Part shown: positions 1 to 52,122 of the stretch, piece by piece
How the letters are laid out: each line of letters starts with the position of its first letter
Position numbering within the stretch: position 1 is the stretch's first letter
From: Candidatus Moraniibacteriota bacterium
GTDB lineage: Bacteria; Patescibacteriota; Minisyncoccia; Moranbacterales; UBA1568
Assembly: GCA_037133435.1 (NCBI GenBank)
Contig: JBAXOD010000005.1
Span: forward strand, 1-61,350
Direction of reading: 5' to 3'
Length of the DNA: 61,350 nt
Made by a program: the position numbers and the translations under genes
Notes under the pieces: model-generated
Database searches by the model: none
Told to the model about the DNA's origin: nothing
Seen by the model: the letters and a program-made list of their open reading frames with translations, nothing else

Positions 1-178
1 GATGGTTAGAGATGAACCAGTGTACCCCGTTGCGTTAGAAGTTGGAAACCGCCTACAAAAACCCGCCATGCCCAGAGGGCCAGGACGGGTGGTTTTAGTA
101 CTTCGAATATCGCACATGAAATGCGCCCTGTCAATATTCTTAAAAACGCCGATGAGAACCCATTTCTGAAGCCGTTGC

Positions 179-208
179 GTCTGCCTTCGAAGGCCTTCGG
201 CGCGACAA
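179..208. repeat. 30-bp palindromic insert (CGCCGAAG...CGAAGG family) inside the wzt P-loop codons
   Basis: It encodes LVAPKAFEGR between GIIG and RNG. GTC occurs at both 179-181 and 209-211 (possible target duplication). It resembles the element at 50275-50302. Confidence 0.75.
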
Positions 209-241
209 GTCCGATGATGCCGAAAAATTCCCCTTTCTTCA

Positions 242-349
242 CCCGTCCGCAGCGATACGCCAAGCGTTTCGGGCGGGCCCGTCCGCAGCGATACGCCAAG
301 CATTTCGGGCAGGCCCGTCCGCAGCGATACGCCAAGCGTTTCGGGCGGG
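242..349. repeat. Three tandem 36-bp hairpin units inserted in-frame in wzt
   Basis: Units of CCCGTCCGCAGCGATACGCCAAGC(G/A)TTTCGGGC(G/A)GG lie at 242-277, 278-313 and 314-349. Each has 8-bp terminal inverted repeats. Confidence 0.95.
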
Positions 350-881
350 CCTCGAAGGAGACGTCGTCGAGCGCCTTGAATTCCTCGAACGTCCGTTTAC
401 CGTTCAAGGCCGACGTGAACGCACCCCGAATCGAAGACACCTTCTCGTGAAATATCCGGAAGGTCTTGGAGACGTTTTTAACGCTGATGGCGATATCTTT
501 GTCCATTGCTGTATTCTAGCCTATTTATAAGCAACTTTCTAGTATTGACAAAAAAGTCGGAATCGGTGAAAATTGGATATGACTTTCCGACTATCCTATT
601 TCTTTTCGGCACGAAGAAAATGGGGCCACTCCGGAAGGCTCGGGAGTGATTATCCTCATCTTCCGACGAACGCGGACACGATACCGCGTGATGTGCCGGC
701 CGTTTGGACCCCGATCGGGATAGGATCGCCAAGCGGTTCTACACGACAAAAAGGACCCTGCCTAGGCTTTGCCTTTGTGGGGGCCTTTTCTTTTATCCTT
801 CTGCAACGTACAATGAAATTGTAAAAGTTAGTCGAACACCGACCGTATGGCGGGTCGTCCGGATTTCCGGACTAGGCTATT

Positions 882-908
882 CCCCCTGAAAAGGGGGTTT
901 TGTTTTTT
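882..908 (+). terminator. Intrinsic terminator-like hairpin
   Basis: CCCCCT-GAAA-AGGGGG followed by a T-rich tract. Confidence 0.6.
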
Positions 909-940
909 CTGAAAAATTCCCTTTCTCACCAGCATTCTCC

Positions 941-1600
941 ATCTCCCTGCCTGTCTCCACGAGGCCCTGCGTGGCGGTCCATGCCGTTCCGTCTCCGCGA
1001 GGATTTTTGTCTTCGGAAATCCGTGGCGGTCCATGTCTTATCATCTCATTCTGGATTGCCACGCCTCGCCGACTCGTCTCGCACCCGCCTGCAACGATAG
1101 CATTTCGGGCAGGCCCGCCTGACAACACTTCGTTTAGCAGCGCGGGCTGGAAGACCGCGGAAGGGTCCGGGAACTGGATTGCCGCGGTCGCGGACTCCCT
1201 CGCAAAGACCGAGGGAACCCTCTCCCTGCCTGTCTCCGCGAGGATTTTTGTCTTCGAAAATCCGTGGCGGTCCATGTCTTATCATCTCATTCTGGATTGC
1301 CACGCCTCGCCGACTCGTCTCGCAAAGACCGAGGGAACTCTCTCTCTCACCGACCGTCTCCGTGAGGCCCTGCGTGGCGGTCCATCTCTTGACTGCTCCC
1401 CGTTCGTCTCCGCGAGGATGTACTCATCCGAGGCGGTCCAACCCCTGTCTGAATTTCCCTTGCCTGTCTCCGCGAGGATGTATTCATCCGTGGCGGTCCA
1501 GTGATTCCGTTCCCTGTTTTCTGTTCCATGTTATCTGTCATCTGTTCTTTCTGGATTGCCACGGTTGCATCCGCCAGCTGACGGATTCACAAAGTCAAAC
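941..1600. repeat. Mosaic palindromic repeat array downstream of the toxin-antitoxin pair
   Basis: Six copies of GTCTCCRYGAG-[variable core]-GWGGCGGTCCA at 953, 991, 1232, 1356, 1406 and 1466. Four copies of CTGGATTGCC...CAAAG at 1051, 1174, 1292 and 1551. Confidence 0.95.
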
Positions 1601-1623
1601 AAAGTAAAGCACGTAATCAGATT

Positions 1624-2280
1624 CTATGACGTTGTTTTGGCGGACACAAAATCGGTTACCAACCGTACAAAAAAACTTTCAATCTCCGTTTGCGCGATTT
1701 CTTCGTCGATCCAGTCCACTTCAAACACTCCGAGATCGGCAAAGTATACCAGCTGTTGCAAAAAAAGTTTTTCGTCGAAGTTTCCCCCGAATCGTCGCTT
1801 CGTTTCCGACAGCATGTCTTCGAACTTCAGACCGTTCTTGAGCAGAAAGAAAACATCCACGTAGTCCCGCCACACCCCCCTGCGACCGATCGCATATGCC
1901 TTGTTGGATCCCAGGTCCTGCAGATCGAAAAGTTTCATCGTTTCATCGCCGACACGATCATGCAGGGCGGGAAAGGGGAAATAAATGAAAGAAAGTTTGA
2001 TTTCATCGTCCAAAATCACGCTGAGCTCGTCTGCGGTATCGACGACCGGACGGACCTGATAGGCGGAAAAAAGACTATTGATCTTGTTCAACAGTTTTTT
2101 GGAAACGGGATCAGCCAGAAAAAAATCGAAATCATAAGACTTTCGATGCCGTAGCTGAAGCGCGATCGCCGTTCCTCCGCCCAAAACGAAATTCGGGAAG
2201 TTTTTTTCCAAAAGGGCGAAGACGACTTGCCTTTTTTCATCCAAGATTTCTTTGTGAAACTGTGAGATATCGTTGTTCAT
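1624..2280 (-). CDS. Nucleotidyltransferase, AbiEii/AbiGii-type toxin family
   Basis: FVLGGGTAIALQLRHRKSYDFDFF (GGTA plus DxD motif) and C-terminal KAYAIGRRGVWRDYVD. Confidence 0.9.
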   Translation of the reverse strand: MNNDISQFHKEILDEKRQVVFALLEKNFPNFVLGGGTAIALQLRHRKSYDFDFFLADPVSKKLLNKINSLFSAYQVRPVVDTADELSVILDDEIKLSFIYFPFPALHDRVGDETMKLFDLQDLGSNKAYAIGRRGVWRDYVDVFFLLKNGLKFEDMLSETKRRFGGNFDEKLFLQQLVYFADLGVFEVDWIDEEIAQTEIESFFVRLVTDFVSAKTTS

Positions 2281-2548
2281 CGATTTTATTCGTATCGCCC
2301 AGATTAAGAATGATCTTGACCACGAAATTCAAAGCCTCCGGAGAATATATTTTTTGCGGATGCCCGAGGAAAACACGTTCCAAAACCTCCGAAGCATAGT
2401 GACTCTTCAGCCACGCGATATCTTCCATCGAACCATACCGCAATACCTGGTTGATAATATATTCTTTGTCACGTTCAAAATCAAGAGTTCGTGCGTCTCT
2501 TGACCAAAGAATCCCCTGCATTTTCCTCTGTTTTTCCGCGTGTTCCAT
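2237..2548 (-). CDS. DUF6922-like small protein, putative antitoxin
   Basis: ILWSRDARTLDFERDKEYIINQVLRYGSMEDIAWL. It overlaps the toxin start. The ATG at 2548 lies 6 nt after an extended -10 (TGGTATACT). The longer listed ORF (to 3022) is read-through of repeats. Confidence 0.8.
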   Translation of the reverse strand: MEHAEKQRKMQGILWSRDARTLDFERDKEYIINQVLRYGSMEDIAWLKSHYASEVLERVFLGHPQKIYSPEALNFVVKIILNLGDTNKIDEQRYLTVSQRNLG

Positions 2549-2599
2549 ACTGCAAGTATACCATATCGGGTATAAAAAACAAGAGGAAAATAGAACTTG

Positions 2600-3200
2600 G
2601 GACGAGGTCGGTCCATCCCTTGACTGCTCCCCTGACTGTCTCCCTGCCTGTCTCCGCGAGGATGTACTCATCCGTGGCGGTCCATCCCCTGTCTGAATTT
2701 CTCTCGTTCGTCTCCGCGAGGCCCTGCGTGGCGGTCCATCTCCTGTCTGAATTTCCCTTGCCTGTCTCCGCGAGGATGTACCCATCCGTGGCGGTCCATG
2801 TCTTATCATCTCATTCTGGATTGCCACCCCGGCATACGCGGGGCAGGCTGGTCGTGGACTCCCTCGCACCCGCCTGCAACGCTGTGTAGCAATGCGGGCA
2901 GGCCCGCCTGACAACGATAGCATTTCGGGCAGGCCCGCCTGACAACACTCTTTGTGTAGCAATGCGGGCAGGCCCGCCTGCAACGATAGCATTTCGGGCA
3001 GGCCCGCCTGCAACGATAGCATTTCGGGCAGGCCCGCCTAACAACACTCTTTGTGTAGCAGCGCGGGCTGGAAGACCGAGGAAGGGTCCAGGAACTGGAT
3101 TGCCGCGGTCGCGGACTCCCTCGCAAAGACCGAAGAGGCCCTTCTCCTTTCCGCTTACCTCCCTGACTGTCTCCGCGAGGCCCTGCGTGGCGGTCCATCC
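2600..3200. repeat. Mosaic palindromic repeat array upstream of the toxin-antitoxin pair
   Basis: Four more GTCTCCGCGAG...GTGGCGGTCCA copies (2650, 2710, 2764, 3169), two CTGGATTGCC host repeats (2816, 3095) and a six-unit hairpin array at 2869-3071. Confidence 0.95.
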
Positions 3201-3258
3201 CCTGTCTGTTTCCTGCCCTTCGCAAAGGGCGGGGAAGAAAAGACCGAGAGATGCGGTT

Positions 3259-3696
3259 TTATGCCGATTTTGCTTTCCGCTTCGAATCCAAAAAAAGTTT
3301 GGCAAGGCTAACCGGAACAAACAGCACACTCATCGCAAGCGAAACCGATTCCTTGGTCGGACCCAGATTAAGAATATATCCGGCATGCTCCGGAGTAAGC
3401 ATGATAAGCACGACCGTGATTCCGAACCACACCAAAGCGAACCAAGCCCATCTACGAAACACATTATCACGAACGAAAAAGAGGAATGGAAAAACAACAA
3501 GAAGAGAAAAAGACAGAAACAATAATGGTTTGCCAATAGTTAGAGCACTTTTATCTAGACACCCACTATATGAATCAGTCCAATATATGTGATCACACAT
3601 ACCAAATATTTCTTGGTTCCTGAGAATGTATGAGACTCCCATGCCAATGCCGATAATTGCAAAAATCAAAATCCTCCACCAATATGTCTTTTTCAT
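3259..3696 (-). CDS. Small multi-pass membrane protein, paralog 3
   Basis: About four hydrophobic segments. Shares PFLFFVRD..F..W..F...WF and PTKESVS..MSVLF.PVSL with the two neighbours. Confidence 0.85.
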   Translation of the reverse strand: MKKTYWWRILIFAIIGIGMGVSYILRNQEIFGMCDHIYWTDSYSGCLDKSALTIGKPLLFLSFSLLVVFPFLFFVRDNVFRRWAWFALVWFGITVVLIMLTPEHAGYILNLGPTKESVSLAMSVLFVPVSLAKLFLDSKRKAKSA

Positions 3697-3770
3697 AACA
3701 ATTTCATCCTATCTGTTCTGATAAGGCTTTACTCTAGGCCATATATCACGAACATAATCCAACTATATTC

Positions 3771-4154
3771 CTATTCGACACTCCGCTTCGAGTCCCAGAG
3801 AAGCCAGACGAGACTGACAGGAAGAAAAAGAACACTCATCGTAAATGAGACCGACTCCTTTGTTGGGTTCATCATACTAAATATTCCGCCACCGTATTTC
3901 GGGGCAAGTGCAATAACGAATATCGTGAATCCAAACCAGATACCAGCGAATTGCATCCACTTAAGAAAAACCGTATCACGAACGAAGAAAAGAAATGGGG
4001 AAATAAATATAAGGGAAGCGGCAATAAATGCGAATGGTTTCGTATATGCATTATAGAAACCAAGATTATCAAAATTCACTGCAAGATACCAATATATCGC
4101 AACAATTAATCCGATACATATCACTCCCAGTCTCCACCAATATGTCTTTTTCAT
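3771..4154 (-). CDS. Small multi-pass membrane protein, paralog 2
   Basis: Same MKKTYWWR start as paralog 3. The upstream extension to 4202 is doubtful because its homologous copy before paralog 3 contains stop codons. Confidence 0.85.
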   Translation of the reverse strand: MKKTYWWRLGVICIGLIVAIYWYLAVNFDNLGFYNAYTKPFAFIAASLIFISPFLFFVRDTVFLKWMQFAGIWFGFTIFVIALAPKYGGGIFSMMNPTKESVSFTMSVLFLPVSLVWLLWDSKRSVE

Positions 4155-4230
4155 AACAACTTTAAATCCTATCTGTTCTGATAAGGCTTTGCTCTCGGCC
4201 ATATATCAAGAACATAACCCAACTATATTT

Positions 4231-4629
4231 CTATTCCACTTTCCGCTTCGAGTCCCAGAGAAGCCAGACGAGACTTACCGGAAGGAAAAGGGCACTCATC
4301 GTAAGTGAAATAGGTTTCTTCGTCATACCCAAAGCTAAAATATTGTTCGAATATTCCGGAGTAATCATAATAAATAGAATCGTAGACAGAAACCAAATAC
4401 CGGTAAATCTCAACCATTTAAGAAAAACTGCATCGCAAACGAAAAAGAGGAACGACGCGACGGACAAAAAAGCGAGTGATAAGTGAAATACGGTTCTCGT
4501 AAACAAGATACTATTTCCATAGAGACATTTTTGCACACTACCATCACAGGACCACAGATATGAAAAAATAACTATCGCTAATGCGAGAACTGTTAATATT
4601 ATCTTTTTCCAGTAGTTAGAAATCATCAT
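4231..4629 (-). CDS. Small multi-pass membrane protein, paralog 1
   Basis: The C-terminus MSALFLPVSLVWLLWDSKRKVE is nearly identical to that of paralog 2. Confidence 0.85.
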   Translation of the reverse strand: MMISNYWKKIILTVLALAIVIFSYLWSCDGSVQKCLYGNSILFTRTVFHLSLAFLSVASFLFFVCDAVFLKWLRFTGIWFLSTILFIMITPEYSNNILALGMTKKPISLTMSALFLPVSLVWLLWDSKRKVE

Positions 4630-7844: not shown

Positions 7845-8150
7845 CATTTGAGAATTTTAAATTGCCTGTTCACTGTTATCTGCTCACTGATTCCGTTCCC
7901 AACCCGTTACCTATTCTGTTGTCAGTTGTGAGTTATCAGTTGTTTGTTTCCCTTGCCACCCCGTAACCTTGGCGCAGGCTGGGTTCTATTAAAAAAATTA
8001 CAAAATGTAAAAATTAAAAATTGTCTTTGTTCTCTGTTCCAGTTTCGAAATTCGAAATTCAATCCGCCAGCTGGCGGACAAAATTGCTCTTAGTTCCATG
8101 CTCACTGATTCTGTTCCCAACCCGTTAACCCGTGAACTCGTTAACCGAAC
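7845..8150. repeat. Intergenic concatemer of 7-9-mer periodic tracts and short palindromes
   Basis: CTCACTGATT.(C/T)GTTCCCAACCCGTTA twice (cores at 7895 and 8113), GTTGTCAGTTGTGAGTT, AAAAATTACAAAAT...AAAAATTGTC, TTCGAAA repeats, and the palindromes at 7955-7983 and 8062-8078. Confidence 0.8.
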
Positions 8151-13382: not shown

Positions 13383-13778
13383 TCAGCGGTTCATCGACGT
13401 GATCGTGAACTGAAGCGTCGTCGCAAACAGGACCCACAGAAGGTAGGGAATGTTCGCGTAGGTAATCCACCGCTCGAAGGGAAAAATCGCGATCATCGCC
13501 CACGCGAGCGTCACGAGGATCAGGAGGCAGTCCACTCCGGCCAACAGGTTATTGCGCATGCCGAACTGGATCGGCGAGAACGCCATATTGAACACGAGGT
13601 TCAGGATGAACGGTAGCAGGACGATGAACGGGATCTTGCCCGAAAAGAACAACCGGACAGCCTGACCGAAAGAAATCGCGATCAGGATATAGAGTACCGT
13701 CCATGCCGGACCGAACACCCACGACGGCGGTGCCCAGGTCGGTTTGGTGAGCGACGAATACCAGGAATATTGGTTCAT
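13383..13778 (-). CDS. tspO: TspO/MBR family protein
   Basis: WYSSLTKPTWAPPSWVFGPAWTVLY and PYLLWVLFAT. Confidence 0.95.
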   Translation of the reverse strand: MNQYSWYSSLTKPTWAPPSWVFGPAWTVLYILIAISFGQAVRLFFSGKIPFIVLLPFILNLVFNMAFSPIQFGMRNNLLAGVDCLLILVTLAWAMIAIFPFERWITYANIPYLLWVLFATTLQFTITSMNR

Positions 13779-13811: not shown

Positions 13812-13940
13812 GTCGCAGGTTCAGAGTCGTTCCCTGAACCATGCAGTTTACCGATTCATCGCAGGTTCAGAGTTGTACTCTGAACCACACAGTTTACCGT
13901 CGCAGGTTCAGATTTGTACTCTGAACCGTGCAGTTTACGA
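13812..13940. repeat. Three tandem REP-like hairpin units of about 41 bp
   Basis: TCGCAGGTTCAGA-N7-8-CTGAACC-N3-CAGTTTAC at 13813, 13859 and 13900. Confidence 0.9.
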
Positions 13941-33481: not shown

Positions 33482-33625
33482 ACAGGCAACAGAGAACATC
33501 GAACAATCAATAGAAAGAACACGTTAACTCGTTAACCCGTTAACTGATTAACGTCAGGAAAAGCGGAAGAAACTTGGCCGCAGAACCGGTAACGATGGTA
33601 TGATATTCTTGTAACGAAACAATTT

Positions 33626-36336: not shown

Positions 36337-36476
36337 CGCTCTTCTCTATTCTTGATCCTTCCTTCTTTCTTCCGAATTCCGTTCCCTCACCCGTGAACGC
36401 GTAAACCCGTTCACTGAGCAACGCTCTTTCTCTCGTTCACTGTTGTTGGTTGTAAGTTGCAAGTCGTCAGTTTGTC

Positions 36477-42846: not shown

Positions 42847-43147
42847 AATCATTTGAATCAATTCACTGCTCCGTTCCCTTTTCTTTCTTTTCGATCCCAA
42901 CCTGTTAACGCGTTAACCCGTTAACCAAGTAGCGTCCGTTTTATGGACTTTATGGACCCCGTAAAATCTCATTGACTCAATCACGGGGCATGCTTTACGG
43001 ACCCTACAGACCCCGAATCCCGTTGTCAGTTATGGGCAGTAAGTTGTGAGTTGTGAGTTGTGAGTTGTGAGTTGCCCGATCGTCCTTGCGAGCCGGTCCG
43101 ATCACTCTGCGAAGCGGAGATGTATCGGATAAGTTATCTGTCCTTTC

Positions 43148-51665: not shown

Positions 51666-52122
51666 GGTTCAATGGTAGCAGACTAAGCATCTATCTCAAA
51701 TTTCACCCTTCTTATAAGCCATAAAATCACACTTTCTAGCTGAAATCCAAAACTTTCTGCTACCTGTCCGAAACGCTTCGCGCAACGATTCTGGCGGACA
51801 AATCCTTCAAGTTTCGTCGGATTACGGCAGCAGGACACTCATTTCCTTCGGATACCCGTCCTCCATTTTCAGGGTTTTTCACCGAGATCATGACCAACCT
51901 CTGGTTGGCGCTCAAACAAATTTTCAGATTTACAGCTCGATATGAGGTTTGAGAGAGATACTCGACCAACATGGGAACCGCCTACGGAAAAGAACGATTA
52001 TACGGTTAACGGGTTAACGTGTTTACGGGTTGAAAAAATCATAAAAAGGTACGTCATATAAAAACGAAAAAGGAGGCTAAGATTTGTTCCTAACCTCCCC
52101 TTAACATTTCCACCGATATTTA

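Follow-up and report, generated by a model that had tools for sequence, protein, structure and literature searches.

Hairpin units nested in REP-like repeats of a Moranbacteria-like genome, and the wider family to which they belong

Two copies of a short palindromic repeat near the end of a contig from the Candidate Phyla Radiation (CPR) are interrupted, at exactly the same junction, by tandem arrays of still smaller hairpins, one of two units and one of six. The locus raises the question of whether such arrays record the addition of units one by one at a dedicated site, as a first-pass annotation of the sequence had proposed, or have a different history. The stretch analysed here (the window) covers positions 1-61,350, forward strand, of contig JBAXOD010000005.1 of the Candidatus Moraniibacteriota assembly GCA_037133435.1. 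Its first 3.2 kb form a dense patch of short repeats, given as being all in one orientation, which flanks a toxin–antitoxin gene pair. The feature is one of repetitive extragenic palindromic (REP)-like repeats nested in REP-like repeats; a noteworthy by-product is a widespread family of hairpin units, termed H, of which no description was found. A REP-in-REP nest in a Moranbacteria-like chromosome, with H units inside REP-type copies, is the reading preferred here, with a probability of roughly 0.7.

Hairpin arrays inside a palindromic host repeat

The two arrays are made up as first annotated, and their coordinates proved exact on recheck:

1084-1150, + strand: hairpin array of two units, 1084-1113 (30 bp) and 1114-1150 (37 bp)
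2869-3071, + strand: hairpin array of six units; the first three are 2869-2902 (34 bp), 2903-2933 (31 bp) and 2934-2972 (39 bp), the last three 2973-3002 (30 bp), 3003-3032 (30 bp) and 3033-3071 (39 bp)

Eight matches to the pattern CCCGCCTR-N10-30-GGGCWGG occur in the window, against 0.02 expected from 100 shuffles. Both arrays sit precisely at the boundary of TCGCA and AAGAC without any duplication of target bases, and empty copies of the host repeat with an intact TCGCAAAGAC are present at 1174, 1292 and 3095; a further, diverged copy lies at 1551. Comparison of the empty TCGCAAAGAC with the filled TCGCA-H-AAGAC reveals a clean insertion, and the units are discrete elements that entered the host repeat at a single exact point. 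The last unit of both arrays ends in GCGCGGGCTGG, as had been reported. The units also have the common ends ascribed to them, but their supposedly variable middles are, on alignment, indel variants of a single sequence. Higher-order periodicity in the 6-unit array shows at 30 bp (96%), 69 bp (96%) and 99 bp (92%). Single units fold only moderately better than shuffled sequences (z about -0.7 to -2.3); because these scores are modest, support for the unit structure comes from covariation rather than from folding energy. A Pfam search of the 59 open reading frames (ORFs) of the window agreed with the earlier observation that cas and integrase genes are missing, and no Cas, integrase, transposase, HUH, Nop-domain or reverse-transcriptase gene was found among them.

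The host repeat is, judging by its sequence, the reverse-oriented (B-type) member of a REP-type palindromic family of the form (C/T)GTC-T-[YYGC GAGG - variable inner hairpin - GTG GCRR]-TCCAG. A-type copies read GTCT-CC-GCGAGG...GTGGC-GG-TCCAG, and B-type copies (the host repeat reverse-complemented) read GTCT-TT-GCGAGG...GTGGC-AA-TCCAG. The A-type repeat, GTCTCCGCGAGG...GTGGCGGTCCA or in its full form GTCTCCGCGAGG-(5, 11 or 19 nt)-CGTGGCGGTCCA, has 10 copies on the + strand of the window and corresponds to the host repeat element on the opposite strand, the host repeat itself beginning CTGGATTGCC. The family pattern is matched 12 times in the window, against 0.00 expected, and the copies fall into two clusters (a caret marks a junction):

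952-1595, mixed strands: left REP cluster, with six A-type copies (+) and four B-type copies (reverse)
about 952-982, 990-1034, 1231-1275, 1355-1385, 1405-1441 and 1465-1501, + strand: A-type copies of the left cluster
1051-1156 (interrupted), 1174-1210, 1292-1330 and 1551-1595 (degenerate), - strand: B-type copies of the left cluster
1051-1156, - strand: B-type copy with the 2-unit array, split at GTCTT^TGCGAG (TCGCA^AAGAC on the + strand)
2649-3198, mixed strands: right REP cluster, with A-type copies at about 2649-2685, 2709-2739, 2763-2799 and 3168-3198
2816-3077 (interrupted) and 3095-3131, - strand: B-type copies of the right cluster
2816-3077, - strand: B-type copy of a two-hairpin variant, with the 6-unit array at the same position

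The left-hand sequence of the empty paralogue at 1292-1330 is identical to that of the interrupted copy at 1051-1156. Two palindromes, at 1569 and 2827, do lie inside host copies as had been noted; they are not peculiar insertions but ordinary variable interiors of the REP family. The two-hairpin variant of 2827 recurs uninterrupted at four other loci (L045, L060, L072 and L054). The extra hairpin of this variant, CCCCGGCATGCGCGGGGCAGG (2826-2848 in the window, and in the same four loci), loosely resembles a short H unit, with arms CCCG.../...GGGGCAGG; speculatively, this hairpin may go back to an early insertion of H at another position of the REP, since fixed as a stable subtype.

A scan for the A-type pattern covered one genome per GTDB species and, being made with a single pattern, could see only loci with an A-type copy. 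Besides chance-looking matches in high-GC genomes, the pattern was found only on contigs of eight metagenome-assembled genomes (MAGs), six of them labelled Candidatus Moranbacteria or Moraniibacteriota and two 'uncultured bacterium'; A and B copies are co-located at these loci. Window and MAGs together yield 66 copies, in which the outer stem positions covary with hardly an exception (CC..GG in 38, TT..AA in 27, mixed in one). The base before GTC, left free in the search, gives TGTC in 33 copies, CGTC in 24, GGTC in seven and AGTC in two, and the 3' end is TCCAG in 50. The interiors of 65 copies comprise 54 different sequences, and the majority fold into hairpins (median z -2.4). The copies usually form inverted pairs and clusters in intergenic DNA: an A copy followed 16-20 nt on by a reversed B copy, tags outside, occurs three times in the window, and inverted A/B pairs are also found in L045, L060, L062, L072, L080, L086, L101 and L121. 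A search with a spurious repeat-spanning ORF brought up no further Moranbacteria clusters. Clusters of REP-type repeats can thus be carried by CPR (Moranbacteria) genomes, which are generally regarded as streamlined; a limited literature search found no paper on REPs in Patescibacteria. In viral contigs the REP pattern gave 21 matches, almost all due to chance and without covariation. One viral contig (L255, GC 0.34) has at 2875-2914 a REP-like unit, CGTCT-CTGC-GAGAGGGTCGTACCGACCCTCGTG-GCAG-TCCA, with a third covarying outer pair, CT..AG, and from this unit the A/B type of family may extend beyond Moranbacteria.

The suggestion that the arrays grow in a polarised manner from a conserved terminal unit does not stand up in the window. 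The arrays are paralogues, and the terminal unit that they share reflects shared descent. On the left they share about 45 nt of flank, consisting of the 3' end of an A copy, the linker gtcttatcatctcatt and CTGGATTGCCAC; on the right they share about 75 nt, namely AAGACCGNGGAAGGGTCCNGGAA and a complete B copy. The 2-unit array also aligns with units five and six of the longer array, their common GCGCGGGCTGG end included. Shared flanks and unit alignment are those of one ancestral insertion copied by segmental duplication, the outcome that the first-pass annotation had itself set against its proposal. By their sequence, then, both arrays go back by copying to a single old insertion and are not a growing record. 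Independent acquisition of units likewise finds no support: all units in the window belong to one lineage, and the periods of 69 and 99 bp are typical of block duplication. The eight units of these arrays, three in the ABC-transporter gene described below and two of another MAG all align as one sequence with a central indel.

Additional insertions are found in other genomes. Some 50 REP copies from the other MAGs were compared, and two of these carry an H unit, both in MAG MJ130702B_bin-524. In one (L109), a B-type two-hairpin copy holds a single unit at TCGCA^AAGAC; in the other (L047), an A-type copy holds a single unit at GTCTC^CGCGAGG. Position and orientation are in both cases those of the window; when the REP is folded, this position separates base pairs 1 and 2 of its outer stem. 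The A-type insertion, with its C^C rather than T^T junction, is most simply read as a second event. The site is precise and recurrent in REP copies, and a preference for it has partial support; the claim that it is fixed cannot be extended further, as H occurs in unrelated flanks on the 92 contigs discussed below, and in the window itself within a gene:

242-349, + strand: third hairpin array, 3 x 36 bp (period 36, 3.1 copies, 94%)
6-506, - strand: remnant of an ABC-transporter ATPase gene with a TagH-like N-terminus (ORF translation), interrupted by the array and degenerate after GIIG

This third array, which had been missed earlier, consists of a sister variant of the unit (CCCGTCCG...CGGGCGGG, with ends CGGGC(G/A)GG). 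It lies outside any host repeat, so that insertion sites vary even inside the window. The array amounts to exactly 108 nt, or 36 codons, in frame between DVSFE and VKKGEFFGIIG. When these 36 residues are removed, residues 4-63 align to TagH (9cfl_B, E 6e-4) without a gap at the junction, and they align in the same gap-free manner to VSFEVKDGEFVALLG of a second ABC ATPase, 2yyz_A. Because H arrays elsewhere have no flank motif in common, any preference is more likely to be for structure than for sequence.

In the preferred reading, the nest would have begun with one H unit entering a B-type REP between base pairs 1 and 2 of its outer stem (CGTCTT^TGCGAGG). The composite of REP and H, together with its flanks, would then have been copied to either side of the AbiEii/DUF6922 toxin–antitoxin cassette; REP clusters recombine easily and may have served as substrates for this duplication. 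Tandem duplication and deletion of units and blocks, by replication slippage or unequal recombination, would subsequently have altered the arrays to two and six units. A sister H copy would have landed in the ABC-ATPase gene and there been triplicated. H itself would be non-autonomous: folded as a single strand, it would be mobilised in trans by an enzyme whose gene lies elsewhere (possibly one of HUH/Y1 type), and this enzyme would prefer the bases of hairpins and the 3' end of H itself.

A widespread family of hairpin units

By sequence, the units of the window belong to a widespread family, H, of the form CCCGCCTG-(3-38 nt)-CGGGCAGG. Metagenomes were scanned with one pattern, an array junction plus the end of the next unit, with exact arms only. 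At least 120 loci were found, of which 92 with a GC content below 0.58 were kept; most of these have evident arrays like those of the window, and together they provide 110 distinct units. The figures for H that follow hold among the matches listed. Neither the A nor the B form of the host repeat occurs at any of the 92 loci, and H is for this reason not tied to the Moranbacteria host repeat. Units are 19-54 bp long, with peaks at 27, 36, 39 and 42-43 bp, and have interiors of 3-38 nt that are mostly unrelated between loci. The arms CCCGCCTG and CGGGCAGG are constant, and this includes the 5' arm of the first unit, which the scan pattern left mostly unconstrained (47 of 57). They form a 10-bp stem consisting of the fixed imperfect arms, in which position 3 is a C.A mismatch and position 7 a T.G wobble, and two covarying inner pairs; the stem encloses the free interior. 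The first inner pair is CG in 40, AU in six and UG in one of 57 cases; the second is CG in 23, AU in 14, UG in five and GU in two. The covariation score of these pairs is 0.382, compared with 0.155 in shuffles (none of 500 as high) and at most 0.156 in slid registers. The alternative register, a junction hairpin pairing across unit boundaries, was discarded: the inner positions covary within units, and neighbouring units can be unrelated. In viral contigs the array pattern was present in four contigs, and the bare 16-mer junction gave 42 chance-looking matches.

All H arrays are head-to-tail, with exact CAGG^CCCG junctions. Most consist of 2-4 units, often identical, and 33 of 65 adjacent pairs are at least 80% identical. 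A last unit with the ending CGGGCTGG occurs in only one of the approximately 59 other arrays tabulated, so that the terminal unit of the window is in no general sense a special one. Copy number differs between orthologous sites with the same flanks: L151 has two units and L207 three; L140 has three or more and L193 four.

In 14 of the 92 loci, the array lies in frame within an ORF with at least 60 codons on each side, on the same strand as the reading frame in eight cases and on the opposite strand in six. The hosts include, judged by the residues flanking the arrays, ClpX-, IF-2- and Fmt-like proteins. One host, a leucyl-tRNA synthetase (LeuRS; L189), was confirmed by Pfam domains and source names; its nearest named homologues are from Chitinophagaceae, Puia and Sphingobacteriales. 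The 27-bp unit in LeuRS is found in the two closest relatives, whereas orthologues whose identity is 78% or lower lack it. At this site (L189, L270, L271 and L272), orthologues lacking the unit have a short remnant, GGCCAGGC or GGCCTGGC, or, when more distant, nothing. The unit stands directly after GGGCAGG, a sequence matching its own 3' end. Two side observations concern the same genes. Upstream of the LeuRS gene, L272 carries a perfect-arm variant, CCTGCCTG...CAGGCAGG. Many LeuRS homologues (P0124 and P0128 among them) are 1,080-1,270 residues long, with DUF559 / PF18741 endonuclease-like domains inside the synthetase; those with names come from Chitinophagaceae and related Bacteroidota.

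Units and host repeats might instead be functional RNA structures, such as terminators or processing and stabilising hairpins, held in place by selection on transcripts and not mobile DNA at all. Base pairing is indeed kept by covariation in both families, and the clusters of the window lie downstream of, or between, minus-strand genes. H arrays abut tRNA genes (Arg, Leu, Thr), within about 10 nt of them, on three low-GC contigs (L126 3773-3899, L136 2000-2130 and L201 202-330), and REPs have established roles in RNA (PMC3733652). However, H occurs in both orientations within reading frames, and in frame inside long ones, where a terminator would be harmful. Arms of a fixed 8 nt, with the same mismatch, are shared by the Moranbacteria-like window and the Chitinophagaceae-related contig, suggesting sequence recognition or copying and not fold alone. 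Rfam provides no match either: over the whole window at the gathering threshold, and over 1-3400 at E up to 1, only a tRNA and two chance miRNA matches were returned. A role in RNA would explain the maintenance of these repeats and not their origin, and it is compatible with mobility; as an account that replaces mobile DNA it is improbable.

It is also necessary to consider whether the difference between two and six units, or the arrays themselves, could be an assembly artefact of a repeat-rich contig end. The window corresponds to the end of a short-read contig, ENA ERZ4200879 NODE_254 (61,349 bp), with a coverage of about 8.7x; over the 7.3 kb compared, the two are identical except for one C in a homopolymer (1788) and one substitution (4946). 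The repeats start at the very end of the contig, two of the 30-bp units are identical, and a 203-bp array exceeds a typical short read. On the other side, about 90 independent assemblies, produced by many projects, contain H arrays of 2-6 units, single units lie at the same REP site in an independent MAG, and the REP interiors flanking the two arrays are different, identifying two loci. An artefact is accordingly an unlikely explanation. Arrays of this type do break short-read assemblies, and they create spurious ORF extensions, such as a 261-aa 'DUF6922' call in the window.

Several observations weigh against the REP-in-REP nest or against the way in which it would have arisen. The unit counts come from a low-coverage contig end, where the 203-bp array with its identical 30-bp units may be mis-assembled. 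Two B-type interiors of the window, GGGAGTCCGCGACCGC and ACGAGTCGGCGAGGCGT, fold poorly (z -0.1 and +1.0), unlike those of most family members, and the host repeat departs from the published CGTC families of REPs (see below) in having a 4-bp covarying outer stem, an internal loop and one or two free inner hairpins. No target motif was found in the 5' flanks of 51 distinct H arrays, which are diverse; 'cagg' appears in these flanks nine times, probably as decayed upstream units. The same REP position has been hit in A- and B-type copies, which no 5' flank motif explains, and gene conversion between REP copies could mimic independent events. No mobilising enzyme and no gene recurring beside the arrays emerged from the 92 loci: a nuclease or transposase family occurring together with H had been suggested as something to look for, and an all-against-all BLASTP comparison of 1,373 ORFs returned only housekeeping genes of near-duplicate contigs. 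Finally, 10 of the 65 adjacent pairs have unrelated interiors; tandem duplication alone is therefore insufficient, and insertion beside existing units is hinted at. The position of the LeuRS unit after GGGCAGG, together with these unrelated neighbours, hints that some growth occurs in this way.

Whole H units insert cleanly, disperse to unrelated sites both intergenic and within genes, multiply head-to-tail and change in copy number, and arrays of them can be paralogous. A bolder proposal concerning H is tentative and at present doubtful: that these are gene-less hairpin micro-elements in more than one phylum, copied as folded single strands and inserting in a structure-directed manner at the feet of hairpins (the first REP stem pair) and beside their own 3' end, with arrays that are partly self-targeted and with the REP site independently hit in A- and B-type copies. 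The same imperfect arms recur in many unrelated metagenomic contigs of at least two phyla, and are tolerated in frame, LeuRS included. Should the enzyme that moves it be found, H would offer a compact system for studying single-strand, structure-directed DNA insertion.

It remains to return to the question raised at the outset, whether a dedicated micro-element system adds units singly at a fixed site by way of a conserved terminal unit, polarised in the manner of CRISPR or integrons. Such a system would be consistent with the repeated use of one site, in one orientation, by four REP copies that represent three subtypes and two genomes, with the exact head-to-tail junctions, with the unrelated neighbours and with the LeuRS unit, whose position is compatible with insertion beside unit ends. 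It is nevertheless very unlikely. The arrays of the window are paralogous, with units that are one lineage differing by internal indels and repeated in larger periods; the terminal unit is rare elsewhere; arrays are mostly short runs of often-identical units, found also inside genes; and no associated gene lies in the window or near the 92 other arrays. What persists of the idea is the hint of growth beside existing unit ends; as to an undescribed element, a limited literature search found no description of H and no paper containing its junction sequence. The dedicated polarised system is not upheld.

Neighbouring genes and other repeats

Between the two REP clusters lie the genes of the toxin–antitoxin cassette:

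1624-2280, - strand: AbiEii-family nucleotidyltransferase toxin gene (Pfam PF08843, E 2e-12)
2237-2548, - strand: DUF6922 putative antitoxin gene (Pfam PF21956, E 2e-11)

Homologues of the AbiEii protein are mostly from Patescibacteria. Exact-sequence searches returned no record of the window's AbiEii or RpoC protein; the public contig came up through a cluster representative of 94% identity and, being the same contig, adds no second strain. The extra C at 1788 falls inside the AbiEii gene, whose product has 218 aa in the window compared with 207 aa as publicly called. For the DUF6922 gene, the gene caller's 261-aa version is a spurious extension into the repeats. In the ABC-ATPase remnant, a 33-bp palindromic segment at 170-205 (CGAAGG|CCTTCG core) encodes LVAPKAFEGRR in frame and follows GIIG directly, within the P-loop region. 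This segment, past which the gene is degenerate, may itself be a further small palindrome that was inserted.

Further along the window, 3259-4629 holds a tandem set of three paralogues, encoding small membrane proteins of 145, 143 and 132 aa that have no match in Pfam; the set is situated between the right REP cluster and the gene for a 1,029-aa LCAT-like alpha/beta hydrolase. A different hairpin array, at 13812-13938, has three tandem units of about 41 bp, each with the near-perfect hairpin GGTTCAGAGTTGTACTCTGAACC, and is located just beyond the 5' end of a minus-strand TspO gene (13383-13778). The 8-mer AACNCGTT, which has GTTAAC palindromes, forms short tandem runs at 8119-8146, 33518-33545, 36396-36411, 42899-42926 and 52004-52031, with nine matches at up to two mismatches against 0.03 expected; these runs may be a repeated protein-binding or regulatory motif.

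Comparison with known systems

Tandem short units with conserved edges are found in H as in TIGR (tandem interspaced guide RNA) and CRISPR arrays, and both TIGR and H arrays occur in CPR bacteria. CRISPR arrays need identical repeats of 24-48 bp, unique spacers of similar size, cas genes and a leader. They were rejected as a model: H units abut directly, their interiors are related or identical, and no cas gene is present. In TIGR units, which are 36 nt long, an edge repeat alternates with a loop repeat, the two being separated by a pair of 9-12-nt spacers, and a Tas gene encoding a Nop-domain protein lies next to the array (Faure et al. 2025, PMC12045711). That the arrays are of TIGR type, or some other guide-RNA array, would suit a CPR host, units of about 30-39 nt with conserved edges, and the one array whose 36-nt period is typical of tigRNAs. 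H has no alternating second repeat, loop repeat or fixed-length spacers; interiors range from 3 to 38 nt and are often identical between neighbours; the window contains no Nop-domain gene; and arrays lie inside genes. A guide-RNA function is on these grounds extremely unlikely.

Integron attC sites have R''/R' core sites of the form RYYYAAC...GTTRRRY and are used by an IntI integrase. In the window a single unit contains GCCTAAC (3036-3042), the units have CGGGCAGG at their 3' ends instead of GTTRRRY, and there is no integrase; attC sites were accordingly rejected. Miniature elements derived from IS200/IS605 (PATEs) have a fixed target of 4-5 nt directly 5' of their left end. These too were rejected, as the 5' flanks of the 51 distinct arrays have no consensus.

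The ...AATCCAG end of the host repeat is similar to the end of Neisseria dRS3, a resemblance that serves as a lead and not as a test. The CGTC-tagged REP superfamily includes dRS3 and Rickettsia RPE-4/-6 (Di Nocera, De Gregorio & Rocco 2013, PMC3733652). Its hallmarks are an unpaired terminal CGTC (with TGTC and CCTC variants), A/T pairs at the first two stem positions, a short CCA tail and head-to-head dimers; the published families have a stem of 8-9 bp, a loop of 4-5 nt and no dedicated transposase nearby (PMC3733652). The host repeat has in common with them the terminal CGTC/TGTC tag, a palindromic body and an unpaired CCA(G) 3' tail; TCCA was required by the search pattern behind the 66 copies, but is invariant independently in the 10-mer CTGGATTGCC and in GTGGCGGTCCA, and is unpaired in folds. 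It too occurs mostly as inverted (head-to-head) pairs and clusters with no dedicated transposase nearby. The A/T stem positions are matched by the B-type copies (TT..AA, 27 of 66), while the A-type copies have CC..GG (38 of 66). Unlike the CGTC families, the host repeat is 30-60 bp in total and almost every copy is different; Patescibacteria are absent from the phyla listed (PMC3733652). Its sequence argues for a REP-type family that resembles the CGTC superfamily and is not a member of its four families.

H, for its part, shows similarity to several kinds of element. Like the palindromic elements of Rickettsia (RPEs) and other intragenic REPs, it places palindromes in frame in protein genes, including essential ones, where they are tolerated as extra peptide. 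The classic RPE-1 is about 100-150 bp and is not known outside Rickettsia, whereas H is 19-54 bp, forms tandem arrays and occurs in at least two phyla. With minisatellites or variable-number tandem repeats, such as the mycobacterial MIRUs, H has in common a change of unit number by duplication and deletion, higher-order periods and copy-number differences between orthologues; the paralogous two and six units, and the orthologous two and three, are behaviour of this kind. H differs from them in being a fixed-arm hairpin shared by unrelated loci and genomes, and hence also disperses. In architecture and in the lack of a gene in cis it is closest in kind to REPs and the larger structures built from them, the mosaic BIMEs and the REPIN doublets moved by REP-associated tyrosine transposases (RAYTs): all are imperfect GC-rich hairpins, polarised by a fixed mismatch, dispersed or clustered, non-coding and without a gene in cis. 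No RAYT was found among the 59 ORFs of the window or the proteins recurrent near arrays. H differs from REPs and REPINs in lacking a terminal GTAG tag (GTAG appears only inside some interiors) and in forming head-to-tail arrays, which are absent or rare for REPs according to the REP survey, in place of inverted doublets; unlike proteobacterial REPs, it has the same arms in the Moranbacteria-like window and in a Chitinophagaceae-related contig. By analogy with REPs, H is probably moved in trans as single strands.

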